Origin: Candidatus Nomurabacteria bacterium
Lineage (GTDB): Bacteria; Patescibacteriota; Patescibacteriia; HK-STAS-PATE-3
DNA: 64,000 nucleotides
Direction of reading: 5' to 3'
Assembly (NCBI GenBank): GCA_023898465.1
Contig: CP060223.1
Span: 800,001 to 864,000 of the forward strand
Positions 1,129-56,619 of the stretch are shown here, piece by piece. The translations under genes were made by a program, and so were the position numbers. The stretch's first letter is position 1; every line of letters begins with the position of its first letter. Below the pieces are notes generated by a model. That model did no database searches. It was not told where the DNA came from and worked only from the letters and a program-made list of their open reading frames with translations.

Positions 1129-2361
1129 TTAGGTGAGAATTTTTTTTGCTTCGTGCAATGCTTGCACTAAGCGATCAACTTCCTCTTTGGTGTTATAGAC
1201 ATAGAGGCTAATGCGAGCAGTGGCCACTGCACCAAGCTTACGCACCAAAGGCTGTGCGCAATGATGGCCAGTCCGTAAACACACACCGTAGGTATCACAC
1301 ACTGATGCCAGGTCATGGGAGTGCATCCCTTTCATATTAAAGGAAAGCACGCCGCCTCGCCCCTCAGTATTGAGAGGTCCGTATATTTGAAGATCGGAAA
1401 TCTTCTGTAGCTGTTCAAGCGCATAACCGGTTAATTCCATCTCATGCGCATAGATATTTTCTAACCCTAAATCTTGTAAATAACGCAGGGCGTGCTGCAA
1501 ACCAGTCACCCCTGCAATTTCAGGTGTCCCAGCTTCGAATTTGAATGGTACGGCATTCCACGTCGCCTCGGTGTAGGTCACCTCATTAATCATATGGCCG
1601 CCACCCAGGAAAGGATCAGCCTCTTCCCAGCGTTCCATTTTGCCATACACAAATCCTGAACCAGTTGGCCCAAGCATTTTATGTCCAGTGGCCACATAAA
1701 AGTCACAATCAATTGACTGGACATTTACCTGCATGTGCGGAGCTGCCTGCGCTCCATCAATAATACTGACAATGCCATGTGTCTTTGCCTTTGCAACTAT
1801 TTCTTTTACCGGGTTTATAGTCCCCAAGACATTAGACATATGCGTGACTGAGAGCAGCTTCACCTCAGGGGTCATCAATGCGTCAAGCTGAGAAAGATCG
1901 AGTCGACCTTCATCGGTAATTGGGATGAAGCGTAGCTGCACGCCCTTGTCTTTAGCTAATAGCTGCCAGGGAATTAAATTCGCGTGGTGCTCCATTTCTG
2001 TCAGAAGCACTATATCGCCTGAATGGAGAAACTTCCGTGCCCAAGCATGTGCCAATAAATTAATACCCTCGGTCGCATTGCGAACAAAGACGATATTCTC
2101 AGCCTTAGGCGCGTGAAGAAATTCCGCTGCTGCTTGTCGAGAAGCTTCATAGCCGGCGGTTGCTTCTTCGCTAATGGTATACACTCCGCGATGCACATTT
2201 GCATAGTGAACGCGATAGAGCTGATCAACAGCTTCAATAACCTGTTTCGGTTTTTGGGTAGACGCAGCGTTATCCAAATACGCTAAAGTGTGTCCGTTCA
2301 CCTTCCTCTGAAGTATGGGGAAGTCAGCTCGGATCTTTTCTATGTCTAATGGGGTACTCAT
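1129..2361 (-). CDS. sufS: cysteine desulfurase SufS (class V aminotransferase)
   Basis: 410 aa. PLP-lysine motif region TGHKMLGPTGSGFVYGK. C-terminal RTGHHCAQP active-site Cys loop. Overlaps the Rieske gene by 4 nt. Confidence 0.9.
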   Translation of the reverse strand: MSTPLDIEKIRADFPILQRKVNGHTLAYLDNAASTQKPKQVIEAVDQLYRVHYANVHRGVYTISEEATAGYEASRQAAAEFLHAPKAENIVFVRNATEGINLLAHAWARKFLHSGDIVLLTEMEHHANLIPWQLLAKDKGVQLRFIPITDEGRLDLSQLDALMTPEVKLLSVTHMSNVLGTINPVKEIVAKAKTHGIVSIIDGAQAAPHMQVNVQSIDCDFYVATGHKMLGPTGSGFVYGKMERWEEADPFLGGGHMINEVTYTEATWNAVPFKFEAGTPEIAGVTGLQHALRYLQDLGLENIYAHEMELTGYALEQLQKISDLQIYGPLNTEGRGGVLSFNMKGMHSHDLASVCDTYGVCLRTGHHCAQPLVRKLGAVATARISLYVYNTKEEVDRLVQALHEAKKILT

Positions 2362-6148: not shown

Positions 6149-6191
6149 ATACTAAGATATAAAAACTCGCCTGTCAACGTCTACTTTGACA
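6149..6191 (-). promoter_or_regulatory. suf operon promoter (TTGACA-17-TAGTAT on minus strand) overlapping a 20-nt palindrome TGTCAACGTCTACTTTGACA (candidate Rrf2 operator)
   Basis: Read on minus strand: TTGACA (6172-6177) spacer 17 TAGTAT (6149-6154), about 11 nt before the Rrf2 ATG. Perfect 6-bp inverted repeat TGTCAA-N8-TTGACA at 6172-6191. Confidence 0.45.
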
Positions 6192-6266
6192 AGCAGTGCC
6201 TGCAAAATCTATGCTACCCCCATACTCGTTCTTTCACACCCGTTCCCATGCAGGAAAGGAATACTC

Positions 6267-6911
6267 ATGGACGCTCTGATGACCAGCCTTGTGCAGGCAC
6301 CAATTCGCAAGAGTCGGCCGACCTGCGCTCGACGTCGATCTCACCGCTTCCAGCAACTACGTCATGGAACCCGACTTCGCCCTCTGGCAATCGCGCTCAA
6401 CCAACTCAACATCAGACCTTTCGTCAAGGCTGATGTGGAGAGATACAAGCGTGCACGTCGCGCTGAGTGCGAACCAACGCTTCGTCGAGATGCGCGCTTC
6501 AGGCGCTTCTTCCACATCAGCGCTAAGGTCGCCGCGATATTCGTGATAGTGTCTGCCATCTACTTGGCGGTACCTGGTCCGGCTCAATTCGCGGCGACTT
6601 GCTCGCTACTTGTTTCGTCGGTCTACCTGACTGCAAACCTCATCCTCGGCTGTCGCCTGCAGTTGCGAACTTACGTCCGCTGGCAGACCTGGAAAATCGA
6701 AACAGAGTGGTGCGCTTACCCAGGCGTACTTCCCGATCCTGTACAGCTACAGATCGCCAGGATCAAGGAGGTAGCACCGGGCGCTCGCTTCGAGGTCGAA
6801 GACCTCCGTTACAATACCGGACGGGTCTATGACCCACTCCTGTACGCGTGTCTGGATGAGGAACGCTTCTGCGTAGCAACTTGGCTAGGCAAGGAATGCC
6901 GAATCGCCTAA
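6267..6911 (+). CDS. hypothetical membrane protein (Arg-rich N-terminus, 2 predicted TM helices); first gene of GC-rich island 1
   Basis: 214 aa from the ATG at 6267, preceded by SD AGGAAAGGA. About 59% GC against a 48% backbone. Hairpin terminator follows. Confidence 0.45.
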   Translation: MDALMTSLVQAPIRKSRPTCARRRSHRFQQLRHGTRLRPLAIALNQLNIRPFVKADVERYKRARRAECEPTLRRDARFRRFFHISAKVAAIFVIVSAIYLAVPGPAQFAATCSLLVSSVYLTANLILGCRLQLRTYVRWQTWKIETEWCAYPGVLPDPVQLQIARIKEVAPGARFEVEDLRYNTGRVYDPLLYACLDEERFCVATWLGKECRIA

Positions 6912-6962: not shown

Positions 6963-7275
6963 TTGACAGTTTTTCTAGACCGTGCTAACTTATCCCGTTG
7001 TTCGTGACCGCATATGTAGTCCCGGACAACGTCAACCACTGGAAATCGGCGCATCATCGCGCCACGTCACAACGAATGGGAGGTATTCCCTCGATGCTGA
7101 CAAAACTCAAGCGTTGCCCGCGTAGGTATGCGAGCCTGGGTCGCCGGTCCCAGTAGCCCTCTCTCGCACGAGAGGAATCCAACTCGTCCTGCGCCGGGGC
7201 CTTCCACCGGCAATTACACCGTCGAAACGGACGAACCCCGGAGCCCGAAGACATCTGTCTGAGGGCTCCTTTTTC
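6963..7275 (+). ncRNA. candidate small non-coding RNA unit: promoter TTGACA-17-TAACTT, about 280 nt ORF-free transcript, terminator ggagccc…gggctcc-TTTTT
   Basis: TTGACA 6963-6968, TAACTT 6986-6991. No plus-strand ORF above 30 codons. Terminator stem 7240-7246/7263-7269 plus T5. Confidence 0.3.
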
Positions 7276-16864: not shown

Positions 16865-17563
16865 ATGTCCAAGCCACTAATCATTGCCCACCGTGGCGCC
16901 TCAGGCTACGAACCAGAAAATACCCTTCGAGCTTTTCAAAGGGCATTTGCGCTACACGCAGACGGAATCGAGCTTGACGTCCATTGTTGCGGATCTGGGG
17001 AGCTTGTAGTAATCCATGACGCCACACTACAAAGGACTACTGATGGGCACGGCCGGATTGCCAATTGCACGCTCTCAGAGCTGCAAAAACTGGACGCCGG
17101 GGCTAAAGAAAAAATCCCAACTCTCGACAGCGTCTTAAAACACACACCGAGAGGTAGCTTTGTGAATATAGAATTAAAAGGGAAAGGAAGCGGTCGAGCG
17201 CTCGCTCAATTTCTTTTTAAAAAAACAATGCGATCTAAGCTCCTTATTTCTTCTTTTCATTTTTCTGAGCTGAACGACCTACGAGAGCAGGACCCAAAAA
17301 CACCTCTGGGCTTACTATCACTTTCTCCTCTTGGCATTTGGGAAAAAGCAAAGCAGCTCTCGGTAAGCTCAATTAATATCTACCATAGAAATTTAACGCA
17401 TAAAACAGTAGGTCGTGCTCATTCATATGGCTACAAGGTATTTGCCTGGACTGTAAATACACCTCGCGATATTAGAAGGATGCTGCAGCTAAAAGTAGAC
17501 GGGATAATCACAAACTATCCTGATCGCATACAAGAAATAGAAAAACCGCCCGCCTCATCCTGA
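16865..17563 (+). CDS. glycerophosphodiester phosphodiesterase (GDPD family)
   Basis: N-terminal IIAHRGASGYEPENTLRAF motif and E/D metal ligands. TATACT 7 nt upstream of the ATG (leaderless-like). Confidence 0.8.
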   Translation: MSKPLIIAHRGASGYEPENTLRAFQRAFALHADGIELDVHCCGSGELVVIHDATLQRTTDGHGRIANCTLSELQKLDAGAKEKIPTLDSVLKHTPRGSFVNIELKGKGSGRALAQFLFKKTMRSKLLISSFHFSELNDLREQDPKTPLGLLSLSPLGIWEKAKQLSVSSINIYHRNLTHKTVGRAHSYGYKVFAWTVNTPRDIRRMLQLKVDGIITNYPDRIQEIEKPPASS

Positions 17564-18557: not shown

Positions 18558-20042
<1,485 letters not shown>

Positions 20043-44942: not shown

Positions 44943-45041
44943 CTTTTTCTTTTACCACGGCGAGGCAGAGAAGTCCCACCTATGTGTTTATTATTACCCA
45001 ATAGCCAAGGCGTCCCGGCCTTGGCAGTTTTTTTCTTTTAC
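44943..45041. repeat. REP-like palindromic element copy 1 (core gccaaggcgtcccggccttggc) with 13-nt flanking direct repeat tttttcttttacc
   Basis: About 85 nt shared with copies at 45881 and 48593. Internal inverted repeat gccaaggc/gccttggc. The same 13-mer occurs at 44945-44957 and 45028-45040. Confidence 0.5.
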
Positions 45042-45167
45042 CTTACGCATTGACAATTTTCGTATTTTAGGGTAGAATGCTCAGTCATAATCTGACACCG
45101 TTTTTTGACACCGTTGACGGAAAGTCGTCAACAAGAACTCACGCAACCCTATCAGAGGAGGGGCGTC

Positions 45168-45803
45168 ATGTGCGACTTGATCCGGGTATACTTCGACTGT
45201 ATGCGACACGGGGAGAGGGAGGGAGATCAACTCACCGCCCTCGGAACCAGGCAGGTCTCTGCCTCGGCTGAGGCCAACCTGGCTGGAACGCGCTATCTCT
45301 TGGCCTTCCACACAGGGATGACCCGCACTTACCAGACCGCCGAGACTATCCTTTCTACCCTGGAGGGGGCCGGCTCCTTGACCCCTCGAGCAGAAGAGGG
45401 CTTCGGCGTGGTTTGGGCACTGAATCAAAAGTGGCCTATCCAGACCGCCCAAGACCAGATCAAGAGTCTCGTAGCCAGCGGCGCTGCTGAGACTGCCGCT
45501 CTTTGGACCTCCTCCTGGCCACCCGCCCTCGCCATCCTTGGACGCTTCCTTGGCACGCTGGAGAAGTGGACAACCTATGCAGCCATGCGTGCTGCTGAAG
45601 ACGGATCACCGGTCGGTGATGGAGTCCGGTTCTTAGTGGCCAGCCACAGCCCCTGCGCTGAACTCGCCGCCCTCGATCCTTCCGCCACTCCGCGTCTCGG
45701 CCCGGCTGACGGTATCACCTACGAAATCGAGGTGGACATCAGAAACCTCGGGATAGTGATCACCTCCTCCGAGGTCTGGCGCTGCCCCGAAGGAGTCGAG
45801 TAG
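45168..45803 (+). CDS. histidine phosphatase superfamily (phosphoglycerate-mutase-like) protein
   Basis: RHGE catalytic motif in DCMRHGEREGDQLTALGTRQ. SD GAGGAGGGG. Flanked on both sides by REP-like copies. Confidence 0.55.
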   Translation: MCDLIRVYFDCMRHGEREGDQLTALGTRQVSASAEANLAGTRYLLAFHTGMTRTYQTAETILSTLEGAGSLTPRAEEGFGVVWALNQKWPIQTAQDQIKSLVASGAAETAALWTSSWPPALAILGRFLGTLEKWTTYAAMRAAEDGSPVGDGVRFLVASHSPCAELAALDPSATPRLGPADGITYEIEVDIRNLGIVITSSEVWRCPEGVE

Positions 45804-45880: not shown

Positions 45881-45965
45881 CTTTTTTCTTTTACCACGGC
45901 GGGACAGAGACGCCCCTCCTATGTGCTTATTATTACCCCATAGCCAAGGCGTCTCGGCCTTGGCG
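45881..45965. repeat. REP-like palindromic element copy 2
   Basis: cttttttcttttaccacggcgggacagagacgcccctcctatgtgcttattattaccccatagccaaggcgtctcggccttggcgg. Confidence 0.5.
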
Positions 45966-46058
45966 GAGCTTATGAAGACTTGAAAAAAACACATGTTCGT
46001 GTATGATGGCCTCGATCACATAATGTACCTTGCAGATAACAAGTAGGAGGTATCAGAC

Positions 46059-46539: not shown

Positions 46540-47028
46540 ATGCGACTCCAAATCACCGTGACGAATGATGTCGACGTCGACGTCATTCATCGAGTTCTCA
46601 AATCCCCTGCGTTCGCCAACAAGCTCTTCCATGAGATCGTCGGCACGCTCTTTCCTGAACAGACGGTGGGGCCAGCCGAGTTCATGATCGAGGAGCCGGT
46701 ACGAGCACTGGGCTGTGTCCCTGAGACGCCTCTCGGGATCCGACTCACCCTACTCGAAGTAAGGCAGGATAGGATCCCGGTCAAGACCTTCCACCAACTG
46801 GTGGCAAAGATGACTGAGCTACTCGGAACCGCCTTGACTGCCTACCTTGGACCCAGGGCGGGTCATGTTCAGACCTGCAGCTTCCTGATGCTCGACCGCG
46901 CCATCGAAACGACGCCTGGTAGCGGGATACTGAGCACGGTCATCAACTCGGAACCTCGCTGGGTCGACCTGAGGACCTACCCCGGAGTCACCGAGTCCGC
47001 TACGACGCCGGTCGGAGCCTGCGGCTAG
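46540..47028 (+). CDS. hypothetical protein (GC-rich island)
   Basis: SD GAGGGAAA. 162 aa. Bidirectional terminator acacccgatt…aatcgggtgt at 47042-47080. Confidence 0.4.
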   Translation: MRLQITVTNDVDVDVIHRVLKSPAFANKLFHEIVGTLFPEQTVGPAEFMIEEPVRALGCVPETPLGIRLTLLEVRQDRIPVKTFHQLVAKMTELLGTALTAYLGPRAGHVQTCSFLMLDRAIETTPGSGILSTVINSEPRWVDLRTYPGVTESATTPVGACG

Positions 47029-48427: not shown

Positions 48428-48994
48428 TTATGTAAAACCTTTTTCCTCATATGCGTGATAAGAAGACCAATTCCAATCCTTTGGATCTTTTACCAAGCTA
48501 GCACGTACTGGATTGTAGTGGATATAATGAATGAGATGGTGGAGATATTGGTCAGTATCTACTACGCGGTCATAAAAAGAATCTTGCCATATCTTTTTCA
48601 TGCGACGGCGGGACAGAGACGCCCCGCCTATATGTTTATTATTACCCATAGCCAAGGCGTCTCGGCCTTGGCGGGGTATATCGGCGTCTCGGCCTTGGCG
48701 AGACTTATACATTTGTTGAGTCGTATAACTTTTAATACTATGCATCACCTCCGACACATTCTTCTTCCCTATTATCTCAAACAACACATGGATGTGATCT
48801 GGCATCACCACGTAGGCTAGCAGCCGTATCCAATGTTTCTTATGCAAGAAGAACAGAGTCTCAACGACAATCCTGGAGAGTTCTTTATTCAAGAATAGCT
48901 TTTTCCGTCGGTGGGTATTTGCGGTGACAAAATACACCCTTGTTTCAGCGTTGTAGGTACGACGAAGACGAGACATGAGGACACCTCGTGCCAC
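48428..48994 (-). mobile_element. REP-associated tyrosine transposase (RAYT; IS200/IS605-like Y1 HUH) with in-frame REP-like insertion between HUH and Tyr motifs
   Basis: HUH motif MPDHIHVLF. Catalytic Tyr motif HYIHYNPV. REP copy 3 (48593-48700) lies in-frame inside the ORF and encodes …RQGRDADIPRQGRDALAMGNNKHIGGASLSRR…. Confidence 0.65.
48593..48700. repeat. REP-like palindromic element copy 3 (with tandem duplication of ggcgtctcggccttggcg) embedded in the RAYT ORF
   Basis: Sequence shared with copies 1 and 2. The duplicated 18-mer lies at 48656-48673 and 48683-48700. Confidence 0.5.
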
Positions 48995-49039: not shown

Positions 49040-49624
49040 CTACCCATACTTCGCCAGAAGTAATCGGGCTGCCTCGCGAATATCTTCCACCCGGTAAAAG
49101 ATAAACTTACCTTGCGTGCTAATGCCCCATTCTAGTATTAATCCCTTCTTCGGCATACGGCACGCCAAGAGAATACGTTGTTTTTCAGCAGGGCTAAGAA
49201 ATTTTTTTAACCCAATGCTTTGGGTGAGTTTACCTTTTTGATAGGTGTAACTAGCTGTCACTTTCCCATAGCGCATGAGGTTCACAATTGGGCCACGAGT
49301 TGCTTCAATAACTACGCGATCACGCTCCAGTAAAATTGTGCCGCCTTTTTTCCATTTCCATGAAGGGTAGACAACAAACAAGGCGCGATGAGGGTGCTCG
49401 CGCTGCAGACGATCAACAGTGGCGGCAACTTTACTTGGTGCCACCCAATTCGCATACAAGTTTTTCCACGGACCACCGCGTACTTCCACAGTGCGAATTG
49501 TCCAGCCACGATATGCATCAATGTTTTGAATACCACGCAGCTCTTTTGAAGAACGCACAAATTGCCACTCAGGATGAGGTAGACCAGCTGCGTCTATTTT
49601 CTTTAGCCCTTGTAGGATGGTCAT
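49040..49624 (-). CDS. mini ATP-grasp protein resembling the N-terminal nucleotide-binding domain of PEP synthase/PPDK (PPDK_N-like fragment)
   Basis: 194 aa. KIDAAGLPHPEWQFV resembles the GLPVPPGFV loop. FVVYPSWKWKKGGTILLERDRVVIEATRG resembles the Mg/ATP-binding strand. 4-nt overlap with the upstream paralogue. Confidence 0.4.
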   Translation of the reverse strand: MTILQGLKKIDAAGLPHPEWQFVRSSKELRGIQNIDAYRGWTIRTVEVRGGPWKNLYANWVAPSKVAATVDRLQREHPHRALFVVYPSWKWKKGGTILLERDRVVIEATRGPIVNLMRYGKVTASYTYQKGKLTQSIGLKKFLSPAEKQRILLACRMPKKGLILEWGISTQGKFIFYRVEDIREAARLLLAKYG

Positions 49625-51231
49625 AACTTACGGACAATTCCTTTCGTTGCATCGACCTCCACTTGGTCACCGTCTTTCAATACTTTGGTAGCAATCTTTG
49701 TGCCAATGACGCAGGGGATTTTTAGCTCCCGAGAAACAATGGCTGCATGCGAAGTTACGCCACCCTGCTCGGTCACAATCGCTGCAGCTTTTTTCATCGC
49801 TGCTACAATGTCCGGGTCAGTAGCAATCGAAACAAGAATATCACCGCGTTGCATTTTTGCCATATCCTTTGGACGAATAATAATCTTAACTCGTCCAGTC
49901 GCTTTTCCTACACAACCTGTCTGACCATGAAGCTCTTCACTTGATTCGTGCTTCATAGACTGCAACTGCTTCTTCATTCTCTTTGCTGCAGCGCCTACGA
50001 GAATAGTATCCCTATTCTTTTCACTGATGTAGACGCATTCTTTCACTCGTTGTTTCAGCATCGATCGAGATAAATGACCACGAGTTAAGGCGGCATGAAC
50101 TTCTTTAGGCAACATGAAGCGCATTTCTTTGAGTGAAATGTGGAGACGCCGGGCAATTTCTTTTTGCAAAAATTCCATTTTATAAAGTGCATATATCTGC
50201 GCAAAGCGACGATAAATTTTTGTTACCATGAAATCACCAAAGGCTAAGAAAAGCGTTTTCCATTTTCCGCTAATTCGGTATTGTCGCAGGTAGCGTTCAC
50301 GCAAACTATTTGCAGTCTGTAATTTCTTCTTTTCCTCTTTGAGCAACGCGGCGATGTCAGACTTCTGACCAATAAGTTTCACCAGCTCTTTTAGGTAGTA
50401 CGTAAAATGCGCAGTTTCACCAATCCACATCCTCGGTACATAGAAGTAGCTCGCATAATGCTTTTGTATACGTTTCAGTATTTCCGGACTTATCGCATCT
50501 ATCAATTGGTCAGCTCGCTGCTCTAGACCATGCTCAAATTCTTCGGTATGCGTTTGCCAGCCATAGGGTCCTGCTTCTTTATTTAAGAAAGTAGAATATA
50601 TATCAGCGAATAATTTTTTCTGTTTGGCATTTTTTTGTATGGCAAAAGCAATGTGCAAAAAATCTTCACGTTCTTTCTGAATCAGTGAAATGCTTCGTGG
50701 ATGAGTGAGCGCGACAAACACCTCATTTACTTTTGCTTCAGGTACTCCTTGCGTTGCTAAATACTGCTTCATCCGATCAGTGAGGTTGTTGTGAAACATA
50801 TCTGCAGCAACCGGTATCCAACACCACTGATAGTACTCCGTGTGCAAACGATCATGCTCAGTATATAATTGCCACAACTTAGTATTACTCTGCTTCTCTA
50901 AGCCCGTCTCGGGTAGCTTTTCAGTAAAGCGTCGTAAGCGATCTGCTTGATGCAGTATCTCTTTATTTACTTGTGTGGCAAAGGCAGGCTCTTGAATAAA
51001 ACGATTAACAATGTGATCGCCCTCGGTCTTCGCATCATCGTGATCATAATAAAACCAGAGATGGTAGCCCTGGTAATAAGTAGCCACTCGTTGATACGCT
51101 CGTCCATTCGGTTTTGCAAACTCATTAGTAAAACATGACAACCAGATTTGCGAAAAAGCAAAATCAATATCTGGAATATCCTCAGCTAGCATCCAATTGA
51201 TACTTTGCTTTTGTATTTTAGGAGAGCTCAT
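49621..51231 (-). CDS. PEP-utilising-enzyme mobile (phosphohistidine swivel) domain protein, paralogue 1
   Basis: 536 aa. C-terminus GGVTSHAAIVSRELKIPCVIGTKIATKVLKDGDQVEVDATKGIV. N-terminal 430 aa of unknown fold. Confidence 0.6.
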   Translation of the reverse strand: MSSPKIQKQSINWMLAEDIPDIDFAFSQIWLSCFTNEFAKPNGRAYQRVATYYQGYHLWFYYDHDDAKTEGDHIVNRFIQEPAFATQVNKEILHQADRLRRFTEKLPETGLEKQSNTKLWQLYTEHDRLHTEYYQWCWIPVAADMFHNNLTDRMKQYLATQGVPEAKVNEVFVALTHPRSISLIQKEREDFLHIAFAIQKNAKQKKLFADIYSTFLNKEAGPYGWQTHTEEFEHGLEQRADQLIDAISPEILKRIQKHYASYFYVPRMWIGETAHFTYYLKELVKLIGQKSDIAALLKEEKKKLQTANSLRERYLRQYRISGKWKTLFLAFGDFMVTKIYRRFAQIYALYKMEFLQKEIARRLHISLKEMRFMLPKEVHAALTRGHLSRSMLKQRVKECVYISEKNRDTILVGAAAKRMKKQLQSMKHESSEELHGQTGCVGKATGRVKIIIRPKDMAKMQRGDILVSIATDPDIVAAMKKAAAIVTEQGGVTSHAAIVSRELKIPCVIGTKIATKVLKDGDQVEVDATKGIVRKL

Positions 51232-52331
51232 GCTCCTAATCTTCGCACAATTCCCTGGTTCGCGTCTACTTCTACGAGATCGCCGCTTTGTAGACTACTG
51301 GTAGCAAATTTTGTACCAATAACGCAAGGAACTTTCAACTCCCGGGCTACGATTGAAGCGTGACTAGTCACTCCACCTTCATCAGTAACAATCGCCCCAG
51401 CTCGCTTCATGGCTGGTATATAACGCGGATCAGTCATTGAGGTTACTAAAATTTCGCCCTGGCGTAGTTTTGTAGCATCGGCGATTTTTTGAATTAAACG
51501 CACTTTGCCTTTTACCTTGCCAGGGAAAGCCACGTTGCCCTTGAGTAGCCCCTTCGTTGCTTTCGGTAATGACAAACCAAAGCGTTTCAATGCGCTAGCT
51601 GAATTTGAGTACGCATATACGTTTTTGCCTTGCTTCAACACAAAACGTTTTCTTCGATTACGTAGCCTTTTTATCGACGGGAGTTTTCCAGAATTTAAGT
51701 ACTCAGTAAATTCACTAAGTAGCAAATACTCCAAAACCTCTATTGCGAGCTTTTCAGACTTTTCAATTTGACGCAGTAATCTTTTCTGCAAATCAATACC
51801 TACCCGGTAAAAGTCAGCTCCTTGTGCACGGCCTTGTAAGAAGAGTTTCAGGACTGCGGGAGTAACTTGATCTGAAACAAACTCTGGCACTTCGATACAA
51901 GCAACTAAGAACGGTAGAGCATCGTGAAAATATTCATGCAATTGAAGTATCGCCGCTTTCGGATCAGCGTGCTCCTGTTGTACAAATATATTATACGAGC
52001 GAAGTAAGGCATCGTGCTGCTTTTTTTGCTGCTTCAGTTTTGCCAGCGTACCATGTGTTTTTACCCAACCTTGCGCTGCGCCTTGTAAATCTTCATCCGC
52101 CATAAAGTGCCATAAAACACCATTCTCAACATACACATGGATTGGGCGAATCTGATGCGAAAAAAAATCTCGTGAAGCTTTATTAAGAAATGCTTCAATA
52201 ACTACTGAGGTTGCTAATACAGTATAATCTCTTTGATGTGGGGTATAGTGAAGCTTCATAGCTTTTACTCTAGCACATAATTCAGCACTCTTATCAAGAA
52301 AGAGGCGGCAGTTCATATTGACTGCCGCCAT
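51228..52331 (-). CDS. PEP-utilising-enzyme mobile domain protein, paralogue 2 (shorter N-terminal region)
   Basis: 367 aa. C-terminus GGVTSHASIVARELKVPCVIGTKFATSSLQSGDLVEVDANQGIV. Confidence 0.6.
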   Translation of the reverse strand: MAAVNMNCRLFLDKSAELCARVKAMKLHYTPHQRDYTVLATSVVIEAFLNKASRDFFSHQIRPIHVYVENGVLWHFMADEDLQGAAQGWVKTHGTLAKLKQQKKQHDALLRSYNIFVQQEHADPKAAILQLHEYFHDALPFLVACIEVPEFVSDQVTPAVLKLFLQGRAQGADFYRVGIDLQKRLLRQIEKSEKLAIEVLEYLLLSEFTEYLNSGKLPSIKRLRNRRKRFVLKQGKNVYAYSNSASALKRFGLSLPKATKGLLKGNVAFPGKVKGKVRLIQKIADATKLRQGEILVTSMTDPRYIPAMKRAGAIVTDEGGVTSHASIVARELKVPCVIGTKFATSSLQSGDLVEVDANQGIVRRLGA

Positions 52332-52661
52332 GTAGACGCGAGCCCCACAGAGCTCTTTCCCTAGGTCTGTCTACCTGACCGAGTTCGCCCAAAGACGATC
52401 TCCTGCTGTTTACCTCTTTCGAGGTGGCTTGGACTTGCTCCGCATGAGGGGACAGCAGTTATTCCTCGCAACGGGGTCCCACACCCGAGACTTCCGGTTG
52501 GCCGTATCCGTTGCAGCTTCTTGAAGAACAATGCGGAGTCACCGCGAAGTCTCGATTAGGACAATGCCACCCGCTTCTTCATGAGAGAAACCTCCCTTCC
52601 ATCAAAAAGCCATGGCATTAAAAATAATACCACGCTGTACTTATACTGGCGAGCAATTTTT
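52332..52661. ncRNA. 330-nt ORF-free, GC-rich, highly structured spacer (candidate structured RNA of unknown class)
   Basis: Several nested helices: ctgctgt…acagcag, gcaacgg…ccgttgc, cgagacttc…gaagtctcg (pseudoknot-compatible). No ORF on either strand. Confidence 0.25.
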
Positions 52662-54227
52662 TTACAACTTTCTGACTAAACCCTTGGTAGCATCCACTTC
52701 CACCTTGTCACCATCCTTCAAAATCTTATTCGCTACCTTCGTCCCTACTACGCAGGGCACACCAAGCTCGCGCGAGACAATAGCCGCATGTGAAGTCAAA
52801 CCTCCGGCGTTGGTCACGATTGCAGCGGCTAGCTTCATTGCTGGTACCAGACTGGGATAGGTTGTCTCAGAAACCAAAATATCACCTTTTTTCATTTTTG
52901 GAATATCCGCCGGCACCTCAATAATTTTTACCGTACCAGAAGCAGCTCCCGGAGAAGCGCATGAACCCGTTAGCTCACTTGCCTCGGTGGTAATCAAGGT
53001 ATCCTCTTTAGGAATTTCTTTCATGAACTTCTTTGCCTTCTGACCAGTCAAAACGATATATTGCTTCTTATCGCAATACGCCACTGTCTCCCGAGTTCGC
53101 GCCAGCAGCTCTTTCATAGTCGGGATCGACTTCCCTTGGAGCAAATCCTCAATCTCCCATGAGTTCAGGGCTCGCACAGTTTCCAAAGTCAGCTTATGTC
53201 GCTGAGCAATTTCACGGAAGAATGGTTCATAGCAGTACATACCATGATAGAGTGCGCCTTTTCGAAATTCCTTTATGTACACTATTTCTTGTCCCATGCG
53301 GATGAGCTGCCATATATTGCCTTGGAGGTGTAGAGATTTTTTTAATCGAGCCTGTTTTTGCTTCAGGAGCCTTTCCTTCACCTTCATATCAGCCAAAATC
53401 TGTTTGGGTGACTCACCGCTCTTTAGTAATTCCCTCCAACGAGTGAGGAAGTAGCGAAAGGAATAAGCTGGCCCCTTATACGCGTAGGGAATCCATCGCC
53501 ATTTCTCATAGTGCGCTCGCAGTAAAGCAGCTACTTTTTGATCCACTTCTGCTAATCCCTTTTCGGCCTTTGCGATGGGCGAACGAAGTAGGTGATTTCG
53601 CACCTTAGCAGAGCGCCGAAGCTGATCAGTAATCTGCAAAAACTCTCTTTCCTCCTGCGCAGCAAAACTCAAGCGGGGTGGGCTAGTAAGTAAACTAAAT
53701 ATTTCCGGCAAGGTTGCTGAGTCACCATAACAATCAATTTGTTTCTTGAGCGCTGCTTCTATACCTGTTGACACGCGGGCCTGATCAGCATCAGCCAACC
53801 AAGTGACCGCCGCACCGACCCCGTGGGAAAGTACATGCCAGCGTAAGACCTTACGAAACTCTCGAAGTAACTGTACATCAGTCATCTCACGGATTGGCAG
53901 TGCATATAAATTCCGAGAAGCCTGCATGAAGTTGATTGACCAATCCTCAACCTGCTTCAAGGTCTTTAATCCCCATTGTGGCTTTTGCAACATCTTCTGC
54001 GATAAGCCATCGGCCTGGGTATCAAATTCAGATCGCCGAAACCACATCTGAGAAAAGTCACCTTTGTAGTAGGTAAAGTACTCACTCAGGTGTCCGCCGA
54101 GTCCCATTCGCTTCCATTCCAAAAGAAAAAAGCGAATCGGCGTCCCCATCATAAAAATAGTATTTTCAGTTATTTCAGCTGGGACAAACCACTTGTCACT
54201 TTGCTTTTTTATGGCCTTTTTACCCAT
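52662..54227 (-). CDS. PEP-utilising-enzyme mobile domain protein, paralogue 3
   Basis: 521 aa. C-terminus GGLTSHAAIVSRELGVPCVVGTKVANKILKDGDKVEVDATKGLV. N-terminal region collinear with paralogue 1. Confidence 0.6.
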   Translation of the reverse strand: MGKKAIKKQSDKWFVPAEITENTIFMMGTPIRFFLLEWKRMGLGGHLSEYFTYYKGDFSQMWFRRSEFDTQADGLSQKMLQKPQWGLKTLKQVEDWSINFMQASRNLYALPIREMTDVQLLREFRKVLRWHVLSHGVGAAVTWLADADQARVSTGIEAALKKQIDCYGDSATLPEIFSLLTSPPRLSFAAQEEREFLQITDQLRRSAKVRNHLLRSPIAKAEKGLAEVDQKVAALLRAHYEKWRWIPYAYKGPAYSFRYFLTRWRELLKSGESPKQILADMKVKERLLKQKQARLKKSLHLQGNIWQLIRMGQEIVYIKEFRKGALYHGMYCYEPFFREIAQRHKLTLETVRALNSWEIEDLLQGKSIPTMKELLARTRETVAYCDKKQYIVLTGQKAKKFMKEIPKEDTLITTEASELTGSCASPGAASGTVKIIEVPADIPKMKKGDILVSETTYPSLVPAMKLAAAIVTNAGGLTSHAAIVSRELGVPCVVGTKVANKILKDGDKVEVDATKGLVRKL

Positions 54228-54640
54228 ATATATGCATTATACCATTGACAAAAAGCTCTACCTATGCTATCCTCTCGCGTAGTTTGCAGAGCAGTTGTTC
54301 TTTCGCAAACTCAAAAGAGTCGAACGCTTGGGCCCGTCAGGGTTAAGCGTGAGACTCAGAGGGACATCCTTTCGAAAGCCGAAGTGGACTGGTGAATACC
54401 AGAACACGTAGGCAGGAGAAAGAGATGGCCCGAGAAGATGAGGCGTTTGACTCGTTTACCGAATTGAGGACGCTTTCCGCCCACGGGCGGATAAGTGAAC
54501 GAGAAGCCAAGTAGCGTAACCGGCATCAGTAGTGTTTTTGTAGAATTACCGGACAACGTACTTGCGACCCAAAAGGAATATGGGTCACCAAACGCCTCCC
54601 AACAGATGGGAGTTCTTTTCATCTAAGGGAGGAAAAAGAG

Positions 54641-55321
54641 ATGGCGAATATCGTCGTCTTTGATCCGATCCGTGAACATTTCAGTGACTACATGATTGGG
54701 CTAGCCAGTCATCAGGTTATCGTGAGAAATACGGTCGAGGACGTCAATGGGACGCTCCGATCCTTCTCACCCGACCTGATCCTGGTAGCTGAATCAGAGC
54801 AGTCAGCTGCCGTGATCGCGGCCGTGCAACGGAGTGATCGACGCATACAAGCGCCAACACTCCTTATCCCTGCATCACTCGAAGGACCTGATGACCAGCG
54901 ATGGCAACAGAGCCGTCAGCTCGGCGTCGCGGGATGGATCCCTCGACCTCAGCAACGAGGCTTCAAGTCACTCCTGGCTGAAGACTGGCGACGTAATATC
55001 GTCAGTCTCATGCTCTGGCTATGCAATCAGTTGCACCGAGAGCAACCACTGAGTGTGTGGTTCCGAGAACATCAAAGCGTCGTGGCTATGGTGGGCCAAG
55101 AAACCTATCATCGCCTCATCACCGGCTCATCCATCCAGTATGCACCCGAAGAATATCGTCGACTCCAGAGGACACTGGCAATCTGGGGAGTACGCTATCC
55201 GCTGGATCGCTATCTCCAGGCTGTCGCTCTTGCAGGACGCAAGGCAGAGGCACAGAGACTCTCAGATCGCGTGCTTACAAACATGGCGAGGCGCATGCTT
55301 TCGTCTGAAGCACAAGGCTGA
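54641..55321 (+). CDS. pseudo-receiver (REC-like) domain protein, paralogue A (GC-rich island)
   Basis: SD AAGGGAGG. IVVFDP…PDLILVAESEQ…TLLIPAS…GWIPRP follows CheY topology, but the phospho-acceptor position is Ala and the conserved Lys is Arg. Confidence 0.4.
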   Translation: MANIVVFDPIREHFSDYMIGLASHQVIVRNTVEDVNGTLRSFSPDLILVAESEQSAAVIAAVQRSDRRIQAPTLLIPASLEGPDDQRWQQSRQLGVAGWIPRPQQRGFKSLLAEDWRRNIVSLMLWLCNQLHREQPLSVWFREHQSVVAMVGQETYHRLITGSSIQYAPEEYRRLQRTLAIWGVRYPLDRYLQAVALAGRKAEAQRLSDRVLTNMARRMLSSEAQG

Positions 55322-55352
55322 CTTCTACCATTCCTGCAAGGGAGGTTCTGAA

Positions 55353-56072
55353 ATGTCGCACATCGTGATCCTCGACCAAGACCCGATCCGACAGCTGTGG
55401 TATCAATCCGCGCTGCCGGGTCACGTCATCTCCTTCGTGGAGACCGCCCTCGGAGCGATTCGATTGGTGCAGCAGGTTCCCACCGCTGCCATCATTGCCG
55501 AGTACTTCGATGGGTCTGGCACTCGGCTCCTGGAGGAGCTCGATCGCCTGGTCCGGAACTGTCGCTTCGCCGCCCCGCCAGTCTACCTGACCGGCACCAT
55601 CACTATGCTGGACAACACGATGGAGAAGGCCGTGCAGCTCGCGCAGAATCGTGGAGCTCAGGACTTCATCCCGCATCCGATCAGTCGTGAGCGCTTCCGG
55701 GAACGGCTGGCCGACGTGCTCGAACAAGACAGAGGAGGTCGTGTCGTCGGACACATCACCTTTTGTGAGGCACCGCCGGTCACGACCTCGGAACTCGTCG
55801 ACCTGACCTATGAAATCCCGGAGGCGCGCGACCTGATCAACGCAACGATCGGGATGCGCACCTTCTCCAGCATGCTGAATCGAGCTCTGGCTGTGGAAGG
55901 ACACGGACCCGCCCAGATCGTCTGTGCGGAAATCGGTGTCTGGGCTACGGAAGGAATTCCCACGCTCACCGCTGCTGAGTTCTCGGCTGAGCTCGGCGAT
56001 AAGGAGAGAACGGCCTGTCAGGATATTCTCTTCGAGATCGCCCACTCCCTGCTCTTTGACCGCGCTGCCTAG
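55353..56072 (+). CDS. pseudo-receiver (REC-like) domain protein, paralogue B
   Basis: SD AAGGGAGG. IVILDQDP…PTAAIIAEYFDGSGTRLLEEL…VYLTGT…GAQDFIPHPISRERFRERLADVL follows REC topology. Acceptor position is Ala. Terminator 56083-56118. Confidence 0.4.
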   Translation: MSHIVILDQDPIRQLWYQSALPGHVISFVETALGAIRLVQQVPTAAIIAEYFDGSGTRLLEELDRLVRNCRFAAPPVYLTGTITMLDNTMEKAVQLAQNRGAQDFIPHPISRERFRERLADVLEQDRGGRVVGHITFCEAPPVTTSELVDLTYEIPEARDLINATIGMRTFSSMLNRALAVEGHGPAQIVCAEIGVWATEGIPTLTAAEFSAELGDKERTACQDILFEIAHSLLFDRAA

Positions 56073-56183
56073 CGCAACCCGAGGCGTCTACTTTCCCCAA
56101 GTAGGCGCCTTTCTTCTTGACTTTTTTATCTAAGTGGATAAACATGCCCACGGACACTGTTCGACAAACCATAGGAGGCGCAC

Positions 56184-56432
56184 ATGCCGGAAATCGCACT
56201 GGAACAGAAGTTCATCGACATCGTAGCTGAGCAACTTGGCGTCGACAAGAGACGGGTCACCCCTAACCAGAGCGCCAAGGGCGACCTCGGTGCGGACTCG
56301 CTCGATCTCGTCGAGCTCATCATGGCCCTGGAAGAGGGTTACGAAATCAAGATCGACGACGGAGAGCCGGACAACCTGGAAAACCTGGGTGAACTCCAGG
56401 CGCTCATTCTGTCCAAGGTCGCCGCCAAGTAG
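56184..56432 (+). CDS. acyl carrier protein (phosphopantetheine attachment site DSL)
   Basis: 82 aa. DLGADSLDLVELIMALEE motif. Own SD AGGAGG. Terminator 56464-56498. Confidence 0.8.
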   Translation: MPEIALEQKFIDIVAEQLGVDKRRVTPNQSAKGDLGADSLDLVELIMALEEGYEIKIDDGEPDNLENLGELQALILSKVAAK

Positions 56433-56542
56433 TCCAAGACAACCCGTTCCTTCCCTAGCAACCAAAAAGCAGTTCCTGCACGGAGCTGCTTTTTCTCTTG
56501 ACGATAATGTAAAAATTAGTTAGAGTCCTAACGTTTTACCGG

Positions 56543-56619
56543 GCCGCCATCGTCTAGTCTGGTCAGGACGCCAGGTTTTCATCCTGGTAACAGGGGTTCG
56601 AATCCCCTTGGCGGTACCA
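56543..56619 (+). tRNA. tRNA-Glu (anticodon UUC), CCA encoded
   Basis: Acceptor gccgcca/tggcggt. Anticodon stem ccagg/cctgg with loop ttTTCat. T-arm agggg-ttcgaat-cccct. 3' ACCA. Confidence 0.85.

Follow-up and report, generated by a model that had tools for sequence, protein, structure and literature searches.

A predicted class II cyclic di-GMP riboswitch and two pseudo-receiver genes as a putative regulatory operon in a Nomurabacteria genome

The window analyzed here is a stretch of 64,000 nucleotides (nt) from the genome of a Candidatus Nomurabacteria bacterium (contig CP060223.1, positions 800,001 to 864,000 of the forward strand). The locus in question lies on its plus strand, where two open reading frames (ORFs), designated A and B, are followed in order by an 82-aa ORF for an acyl carrier protein (ACP) and by a gene for tRNA-Glu(UUC). 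The product of A is 100% identical to H6760_04240, and that of B to H6760_04245. Both gene A (54641-55321; 226 aa) and gene B (55353-56072; 239 aa) encode members of a family related to receiver (REC) domains, A being a divergent member with a basic C-terminal helical domain and B a conserved member with an acidic one. A spacer of 413 bases separates gene A from the divergent gene upstream, a phosphoenolpyruvate (PEP) utilizer that ends at 54227, and holds the leader of a putative class II riboswitch for cyclic di-GMP (c-di-GMP). The locus is very probably a riboswitch-gated regulatory operon and not the acyl-transfer island that the initial annotation had proposed; that annotation missed the riboswitch leader upstream of gene A. 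Related loci and contigs compared with the window are designated by L-numbers (L001-L160).

The leader and its aptamer

The leader contains a sigma-70-type promoter (TTGACA, a 17-nt spacer and TATCCT, with TG before the -10 element; 54245-54273, plus strand, 10 of 12 matches), with a 25-nt block that L001 shares without change and that is conserved in L002 as well. The leader is 87-95% identical to that of L002, whereas gene B reaches only 82-84% at the DNA level, and it is considered non-coding because the two leaders differ by indels of 11, 4 and 1 nt. Conservation above that of gene B reads as the signature of functional non-coding sequence. Two coding candidates in this region were rejected: a leader peptide (ATG at 54425, 29 codons) meets a stop after 12 codons in L002 and owes its apparent conservation to the aptamer, and a minus-strand ORF at 54356-54622 is broken by frame-shifting indels in L002.

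The class II c-di-GMP riboswitch was reportedly first described by Lee et al. in Science in 2010. Its model, RF01786, gives the only Rfam match in the leader, a weak one at 54430-54534 (23.7 bits) that covers model positions 1-84 of 84. This score stays below threshold because the P3 loop of the window aptamer carries a 29-nt insertion where the model expects 9 nt. Helix P3 is formed by 54451-54459 paired with 54495-54503, and an extra hairpin lies within its loop at 54477-54490. In L001, whose B orthologue is 90% identical, the leader is free of the insertion and reaches 64 bits, which exceeds the gathering score of 53.5, and the L008 leader scores 42.8 bits with the same model. A covariance model, R1, built from 39 aptamers (alignment A5) with the window and L002 excluded, places the aptamer at 54427-54539 with 45.7 bits (E 1.6e-13) as its sole match in the 64 kb.

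All elements of the class consensus are present, namely P1, P2, P3 and the pseudoknot between the loop and the 3' tail, together with the conserved blocks GAGGC, UGA and AGU-G-G-AACCGGC. The pseudoknot strands lie at 54468-54474 (GGACGCT) and 54513-54521 (AGCGTAACC); GGACGCU can pair with AGCGU-AA-CC in the same register as the Rfam consensus GGGCAC/GUGCAACC, with both strands changed. These two-sided changes are counted relative to the Rfam consensus, the pseudoknot bases being fixed by the search pattern within the aptamer set assembled here. At least 120 genome contigs, most of them from Clostridia, Saccharibacteria and other Patescibacteria, the Candidate Phyla Radiation (CPR), carry the pseudoknot variant GGACGCTT/AGTAGCGTAACC. 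The aptamer lies in a 5' leader that also contains an expression platform, as the positions of promoter, terminator, Shine-Dalgarno sequence (SD) and start codon indicate. Given the 64 bits of L001, the 45.7 bits of R1 and the retained pseudoknot register, the weak Rfam match is regarded as genuine and the element as a class II c-di-GMP riboswitch. It shares with the RF01786 class the three helices, the pseudoknot and the position in a 5' leader followed by an intrinsic terminator, and differs in that most leaders of this gene family carry a hairpin of 15-40 nt in the P3 loop.

A pseudo-receiver family linked to the aptamer

The family to which A and B belong was assembled by an exhaustive HMMER search with a profile of B over 1.84 billion representative proteins, which returned 15 matches at E up to 0.001, including about a dozen full-length relatives of 227-244 aa, and is represented by a 16-sequence alignment (A4). 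In a word-indexed search, B has two close homologues, and A finds no homologue but itself among 5.8 billion clustered proteins. Pairwise comparison of A and B detects no similarity (BLASTP E 67), nor does hhalign of A against three close B sequences, so that their paralogy becomes visible only once the exhaustive search has added the distant members. Against the resulting family profile, A aligns from end to end (hhalign 97.2%, E 3e-11, residues 1-222; HMMER E 7.5e-14). A and B are paralogous members of a small, hitherto undescribed family specific to Patescibacteria.

Homology of this family to REC domains is supported along independent lines. The family profile aligns with a hand-typed REC alignment (CheY, Spo0F, PhoB, OmpR, NtrC, NarL and two consensus-like sequences) at an hhalign probability of 98.6% (E 1e-15) over residues 3-125 of B. 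It also matches, independently of the typed alignment, the PDB sequences of the CheY, LuxO, YycF, PhoB and NtrC receivers down to E 1e-8 over positions 1-126. Seven of the 16 members match Pfam Response_reg below threshold (best E 2.5e-5), and A or B alone gives no match to that family. The Pfam and NCBIfam matches that A and B do give on their own, to KDGP aldolase and KDO transferase, were rejected as chance. The initial annotation had read both proteins as paralogous pseudo-receivers from the letters of the sequence, and these profile comparisons, the kind of check it had suggested, bear it out.

The catalytic positions of both proteins are degenerate. In B they read D8 followed by Q, then E50, G/T and H108, and in A, D8 followed by P, then A50 (or E51), A/S and R102. 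The acceptor region is IIAEYF in B, compared with LADWF in the family and ISDWN in CheY; the acceptor of A would be Glu51 if its third beta strand were one residue longer, as LAESDES in L023 suggests. The statement in the initial annotation that the acceptor Asp is Ala in both proteins therefore fails for B, which has Glu50, and stands for A as Ala50, with Glu51 as the alternative. It was right that the conserved Lys is replaced, by His108 in B and R102 in A. The first acidic residue (D8) is kept; Lys, Thr/Ser and the second acidic residue are lost family-wide, the second acid being Q in B and P in A, the Thr/Ser position showing no conservation, and Lys being absent from every two-domain member. 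The claim of the initial annotation that A and B cannot be phosphorylated in the classical way agrees with this degeneration of acceptor, Lys, Thr/Ser and second acid.

According to published definitions, a pseudo-receiver (PsR) is a REC domain missing at least one catalytic residue, and an aspartate-less receiver (ALR) is one missing the acceptor Asp (PMC12632262). Neither A nor B has all five catalytic residues (DD, D, T/S and K) of a typical receiver (PMC12632262), and by the definitions of Bourret et al. the whole family is classed as pseudo-receivers and A and B as ALRs (PMC12632262). With ALR domains in general they share REC homology and replacement of the Asp, which is by Glu in 26% of ALRs (PMC12632262; PMC4395418). 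They differ from them in that four of the five catalytic positions are degenerate, in a C-terminal domain absent from Pfam, NCBIfam and the PDB sequences, and in strict coupling to a riboswitch.

Behind the REC-like domain, which takes up residues 1-125 of B, the C-terminal domain comprises about 100 residues that low-confidence models predict to be helical. It has no relatives in Pfam, NCBIfam or the PDB sequences and is present twice in the 392-aa member of L023. Its isoelectric point is 4.3-5.4 in the family and 10.2 in A. The C-terminal halves of A and B, described in the initial annotation as different, are homologous, as the end-to-end match of A to the family profile indicates.

The aptamer is the one feature common to every family locus examined. 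The 13 loci comprise the window, L001-L004, L006-L008, L023 and L157-L160, and in all 13 an aptamer lies upstream of the family gene on the same strand. In the window, L001-L004, L006-L008 and L023, it sits in a gap of 300-800 nt upstream of the family gene. L157-L160 were fetched by protein sequence alone, as a test of whether the linkage could be predicted, and in each of the four the aptamer precedes the gene by 120-250 nt in the same orientation, with R1 scores of 46.5, 46.4, 36.6 and 21.9 bits and, for two of them, Rfam scores of 42.1 and 35.5. Matches to the RNA pattern at five further loci (L019, L030, L066, L081 and L113) place the aptamer before a gene for a single-domain REC protein with a Glu acceptor. 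Three of these proteins score higher with the family hidden Markov model (HMM) than with a generic REC HMM (L113, 68.6 versus 32.6 bits; L066, 63.2 versus 20.5; L081, 43.3 versus 27.3), and those of L019 and L030 do not. Tandem c-di-GMP-II aptamers precede the single-domain Glu-acceptor receiver genes at L019 (1016-1239), a metagenome-assembled genome (MAG) of Komeilibacteria, and at L081 (5459-5637), a MAG labelled Gammaproteobacteria.

Transcription unit, expression platform and predicted polarity

The leader, A and B appear to form one transcription unit, with the ACP and tRNA-Glu genes as separate units, because of where the terminators and promoter-like sites fall. The spacer between A and B is 31 nt and holds an SD, and a terminator scan finds no terminator within it. 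A 13-bp terminator hairpin with a T-rich tail closes the unit after B (56081-56111); an Rfam match to 'weev_FSE' at 56083-56109 was set aside as a chance match to this plain hairpin. The ACP gene (56184-56432) is preceded by a promoter-like site (TTGACT, 16 nt, TAAACA; 56118-56145) that was read by eye and that the promoter scan did not flag, and L131 has a similar site at the matching position before its ACP gene (TTGACA, 16 nt, TAAACT). A hairpin with a T-run lies 3' of the ACP gene at about 56469-56494. It is followed by a promoter-like site of tRNA-Glu from the promoter scan (56498-56526) and by tRNA-Glu(UUC) itself at 56543-56619, which, like the three ORFs, is confirmed. The view of the initial annotation that the ACP gene is a separate unit with its own SD and terminator is strengthened by the promoter-like site and by the 13-bp terminator upstream.

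The expression platform lies between the aptamer and gene A. Terminator scan and folding identify an intrinsic terminator at 54596-54619, with a CTCCCA/TGGGAG stem followed by TTCTTTT, and the SD (GGGAGG) and ATG of gene A span 54626-54643. The aptamer 5' strand GAGGCGTTTG (54440-54449; junction and P2), read from the sequence and the minimum free energy (MFE) folds as the 5' half of an anti-terminator, corresponds in the RNA to GAGGCGUUUG and is the exact complement of CAAACGCCUC at 54589-54598. This latter segment (CAAACGCCTC in the DNA) would act as a hub with alternative partners: it overlaps the 5' arm of the terminator (CUCCCA, 54596-54601), and its CCUCC core can pair with either the 3' arm of the terminator or the GGGAGG SD of gene A.

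The same three-way pairing, with compensatory changes, is found in L001, L003, L006, L007, L008, L066, L113 and L157-L160, and the long-range partners elsewhere include GAGGCA/UGCCUC in L001, GAGGUGUUGAU/AUCAACGCCUC in L006 and AGGCAU/AUGCCU in L008. Hairpins with T-runs equivalent to the window terminator occur in all related leaders. Among the seven leaders folded, each platform on its own forms the terminator, and the full-length MFE fold without ligand forms the long-range helix. Five of these leaders favor the long-range helix by 10-17 kcal/mol, and the margins are smaller in L066 (0.6) and L113 (4.6). In the Firmicutes members typical of alignment A5, by contrast, the 5' arm of the terminator is the aptamer's own 3' strand (AACCGGCC...GGCCGGTTTT, also AACCGGCC...GGCCGGUUUU), an overlap that reads as an ON design. 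The family leaders thus depart from the Firmicutes arrangement in their distal terminator and in an anti-terminator drawn from the aptamer 5' strand, which would make them OFF switches.

A mechanism of this kind would operate as follows. The promoter at 54245 would drive a leader of about 370 nt containing the aptamer (54427-54539) and the terminator (54596-54619). When ligand is absent, GAGGCGUUUG would pair with CAAACGCCUC, the terminator stem would be disrupted, the SD would be free, and both genes would be transcribed and translated. Binding of c-di-GMP would keep the 5' strand in the aptamer, and the CCUCC hub would form the terminator or mask the SD, so that expression would stop. This OFF polarity is predicted because the complement of the aptamer 5' strand sits at the foot of the distal terminator, opposite the SD, and among scenarios in which the switch works it appears somewhat the more probable. 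The activity of A and B would then most likely be set by the amount made, and thus by the c-di-GMP level, and not by a kinase, since the acceptor is Glu or Ala and Lys, Thr/Ser and the second acid are missing. The two proteins most likely act via protein-protein contacts, and the ACP gene would be an adjacent but separate transcription unit.

Several points weigh against this picture. The window aptamer, at 23.7 bits, falls below the gathering score of RF01786 (53.5), and c-di-GMP is assumed as its ligand from class membership. In the window, no more than 3 nt of the terminator stem are shared with the anti-terminator, and a 5-bp hairpin survives there in the MFE fold. The class II riboswitches characterized in Clostridioides difficile are ON switches (PMC11477304), and the prediction of an OFF switch, drawn from folding and covariation, runs contrary to that precedent. 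On the protein side, eight family members keep the acceptor Asp, some of which may still be phosphorylated, and the AlphaFold models of A and B, built on shallow alignments, reach a predicted local distance difference test (pLDDT) of 48 and 42, so that their strand and helix order, although that of a REC domain, is unreliable. The 64-kb window also contains no gene of c-di-GMP turnover or binding, that is, no diguanylate cyclase or phosphodiesterase gene (GGDEF, EAL, PilZ).

The alternative that best survives is that the element is an ON switch as in C. difficile, with A and B made at high c-di-GMP. All the class II c-di-GMP riboswitches characterized in that species turn transcription ON (PMC11477304, PMC12548384), and the MFE fold of the window can accommodate a shortened terminator hairpin beside the long-range helix. 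The family leaders, however, show none of the Firmicutes-type overlap between aptamer 3' strand and terminator, and they place the complement of the aptamer 5' strand at the foot of the distal terminator, opposite the SD. An ON switch is therefore judged unlikely, and the OFF switch is retained as the preferred reading of the platform.

Neighboring elements and biological meaning

The 82-aa ORF encodes a genuine AcpP-type ACP, as the initial annotation stated. It carries the DSL site with Ser at residue 39, matches PF00550 (E 1.9e-11) and passes both TIGR00517 (71.2 bits, cutoff 70.45) and NF002148 (77.2, cutoff 71). With the AcpP of type II fatty acid synthesis (FAS; TIGR00517) it shares length, the DSL site and about 50-56% identity to bacterial AcpP; it differs from ordinary AcpP in its bare pass of TIGR00517, in having no fab or pls neighbors and in belonging to a lineage described as devoid of ACP-dependent machinery. 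Its presence is unusual because surveys of CPR genomes report no enzymes that make or use ACP (bioRxiv 10.1101/465690). The gene has only two close homologues, in L002 and L131 (73% and 62% identity), and the order of family gene followed by ACP is found in three genomes only, those of the window, L002 and L131.

The next alternative, proposed by the initial annotation, is a GC-rich island at tRNA-Glu in which the ACP serves acyl transfer outside FAS with the pseudo-receivers as regulators. The GC richness is real: GC content is 0.59 at 55001-56000 compared with 0.48 for the window, and because the excess is located at third codon positions, it shows in GC3, which is 0.73 for B, 0.77 for the ACP gene and 0.55 for A compared with 0.36-0.53 for 20 other genes. 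A like contrast for the pair of family gene and ACP exists in L002 and L131. High expression was rejected as its cause, the gene for ribosomal protein S16 having a GC3 of only 0.47. Besides this composition, an island gains some support from the pairing of family gene and ACP in three genomes, from the unusual presence of an ACP in a CPR genome, from a PlsC-type acyltransferase gene upstream of the B leader in L001, and from the synonymous divergence (dS) between the window and L002, which at 0.59 for gene B is roughly three times the 0.21 of the flanking PEP-utilizer gene (53656-54227). The contrast in dS suggests that recombination has replaced the allele or that substitution is locally faster in the GC-rich gene; the core of the leader between B and the PEP utilizer is about 95% identical in L002.

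Most of the evidence argues against such an island. In unrelated contexts, too, family genes exceed their host genomes in GC content (0.53 versus 0.44 in L004; 0.61 versus 0.49 in L008), so that high GC goes with the gene family and not with insertion at this site. The check for direct repeats of the tRNA 3' end that the initial annotation had called for was run over the window: the last 27 nt of tRNA-Glu, with up to three mismatches, have no second copy there, a direct-repeat search found no relevant repeats, and no integrase is among the annotated ORFs of the window. Integration directed by the tRNA also finds no support in L131, where ACP and tRNA are not adjacent, or in L004, where tRNA-Glu lies 3.3 kb from the family gene with three other genes between; in L002, the contig breaks off at 2310, some 60 bp past the ACP gene (1997-2248), and is silent on any tRNA that follows. 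Neither phage nor plasmid relatives were found, and an origin of that kind was rejected.

A functional tie between ACP and receivers is not supported, as judged by the nine of 13 family loci that have no ACP downstream (L004, L007, L008, L023, L157-L160, and L001 within its contig; in L004, L007, L008 and L023 as judged by inspection of ORFs) and by the position of the ACP gene outside the unit that runs from riboswitch to terminator, beyond the 13-bp terminator and with its own promoter-like site. The window contains no genes for phosphopantetheinyl transferase (PPTase), Fab enzymes, acyl-ACP synthetase or acyltransferase. A gene for glycerophosphodiester phosphodiesterase is present at 16865-17563. 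Moreover, gene A is simply missing from the otherwise collinear L002, where a copy of a hairpin module takes its place. The island is therefore quite improbable, although joint lateral acquisition of the pair of family gene and ACP within this Nomurabacteria clade is possible. Least probable is that the two genes are response-regulator remnants, in decay or without function, behind a relic RNA, since the homologue-free state of A, its absence from L002 and the lost active-site residues of both proteins are outweighed by purifying selection on B (dN/dS 0.15-0.21), by retention of full length, both domains and riboswitch across distant Patescibacteria, by the intact ORF and SD of A with its end-to-end profile match, and by a leader conserved above the coding sequence.

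Three more GC-rich ORFs occur in the window at 45105-45803, 46540-47028 and 6186-6911 (GC 0.56-0.61, GC3 0.60-0.72), without a Pfam match, kinship to the receiver family or a riboswitch, and on their account the window appears to contain several compositionally foreign patches. Palindromes resembling repetitive extragenic palindromic (REP) sequences (CCAAGGCGTCNCGGCCTTGG), set in a longer repeated block, flank the first two of these ORFs at about 45010-45050 and 45940-45975. Two more REP-like copies lie at 48656-48700, inside or next to an IS200-like Y1_Tnp gene (48428-48994, minus strand), which may represent a REP-associated tyrosine transposase (RAYT) with its REPs. In L001 and L004, this same Y1_Tnp gene is directly downstream of the family gene.

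The region between promoter and aptamer holds a further module of about 120 nt, the first 57 nt of which fold into an interrupted hairpin of 16 bp with AGAGGGACA after it (54314-54371). Across six copies the hairpin shows covariation, with 96.9% of cells paired and seven pairs changed on both sides, compared with at most one in slid controls, and the G-U pairs in it mark the modelled strand as that of the RNA. A model of these copies, R2, scores 81.8 bits on the window hairpin, the window copy being part of its training set. It finds eight copies, of which six were used for training (one in the window, two in L002 at 714-771 and 1039-1096, two in L004 at 7020-7076 and 7138-7194, one in L147 at 1501-1557) and two are new (L004 11663-11718, minus strand; L147 1425-1485). 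The copies occur in tandem and on either strand, twice beside tRNA sequences and, in L002, after the riboswitch terminator; the L001 leader has none. A second, less well-aligned domain reads GAAGUG...ACACGUA...AUGGCCCG.

At E up to 10, Rfam gives no match for the hairpin module, and RNase P, tmRNA, 6S, glycine, SAM-I, ydaO and ykkC were rejected as identities for this 5' module on the same grounds. A T-box identity for GGTGGTACCGCGG in L147 was likewise dismissed, as Rfam reports no T-box there and the sequence represents part of a tRNA copied in antisense. Positions 54410-54429 and 54626-54645 form a direct repeat of 20 nt with 90% identity: the 3' end of the module (AGGCAGGAGAAAGAGATGGC) resembles the SD and start codon of gene A (AGGGAGGAAAAAGAGATGGC), and its ATGGCCCGA would read M-A-R, the usual N-terminus of the receiver family. 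The repeat could be the fossil trace of a former gene start, or it could have arisen by chance.

Other features of the surroundings may be recorded briefly. Upstream of the leader, three tandem paralogous genes on the minus strand (49621-51231, 51228-52331 and 52662-54227) have only the C-terminal PEP-utilizing 'mobile' domain (PF00391) as a recognizable part, preceded by N-terminal regions. The array recurs in L004 and L131, and its 330-nt gap (52332-52661) is 79% conserved in L001. In L147, just after the two hairpin modules, the 3' half of the neighboring tRNA (1841-1912, minus strand) has a partial copy at 1683-1745, about 100 nt from the intact tRNA, in which a longer insert replaces the T-loop; a small insertion at a tRNA gene seems to have left this scar. 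The 16S rRNA gene at 18559-20042 (minus strand, 1452 bits) is complete and has no adjacent 23S rRNA gene within the window.

Among known systems, cmrRST of C. difficile is the closest precedent at the system level. There, too, a class II c-di-GMP riboswitch lies upstream of two co-regulated receiver proteins (PMC12548384), and one of the two, CmrT, has Glu53 at the acceptor position; the inference there is that CmrT is constitutively active and that control is exerted through its expression level (PMC12548384). CmrR and CmrT, however, are DNA-binding proteins of the OmpR family accompanied by the kinase CmrS and an invertible switch (PMC12548384; PMC11477304). The locus described here has no kinase and no DNA-binding domain, and instead a helical output module and a predicted OFF switch; A and B both lack the Asp and, in addition, Lys, Thr/Ser and the second acidic residue.

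The literature searched contains no paper describing c-di-GMP riboswitches or their targets in Patescibacteria. Two linked and decidedly speculative proposals, which are doubtful as they stand, are that the REC-like family and its single-domain Glu-acceptor relatives constitute a dedicated c-di-GMP output module in Patescibacteria and that the hairpin module (from 54314 to about 54430), instead of being a repeated intergenic element, is a structured RNA of a new kind with which the leader gains a second input. Such an output module would consist of receivers that act without phosphorylation, are dosed by an OFF class II riboswitch and carry a new helical interaction domain directed at a target such as pili or host attachment.

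With this analysis, an 'intergenic' stretch of about 400 nt and two 'hypothetical proteins' become one putative regulatory unit, in which receivers of one small, phosphorylation-dead family are strictly coupled to a known class of riboswitch, in all 13 loci examined. The family would be a natural second case, after CmrT of C. difficile, of a receiver dosed by a riboswitch without kinase control and, if the predicted polarity is true, the riboswitch would be a class II c-di-GMP element working as an OFF switch. For second-messenger control in ultra-small episymbiotic bacteria, the locus offers a concrete point of entry that can be put to the test.

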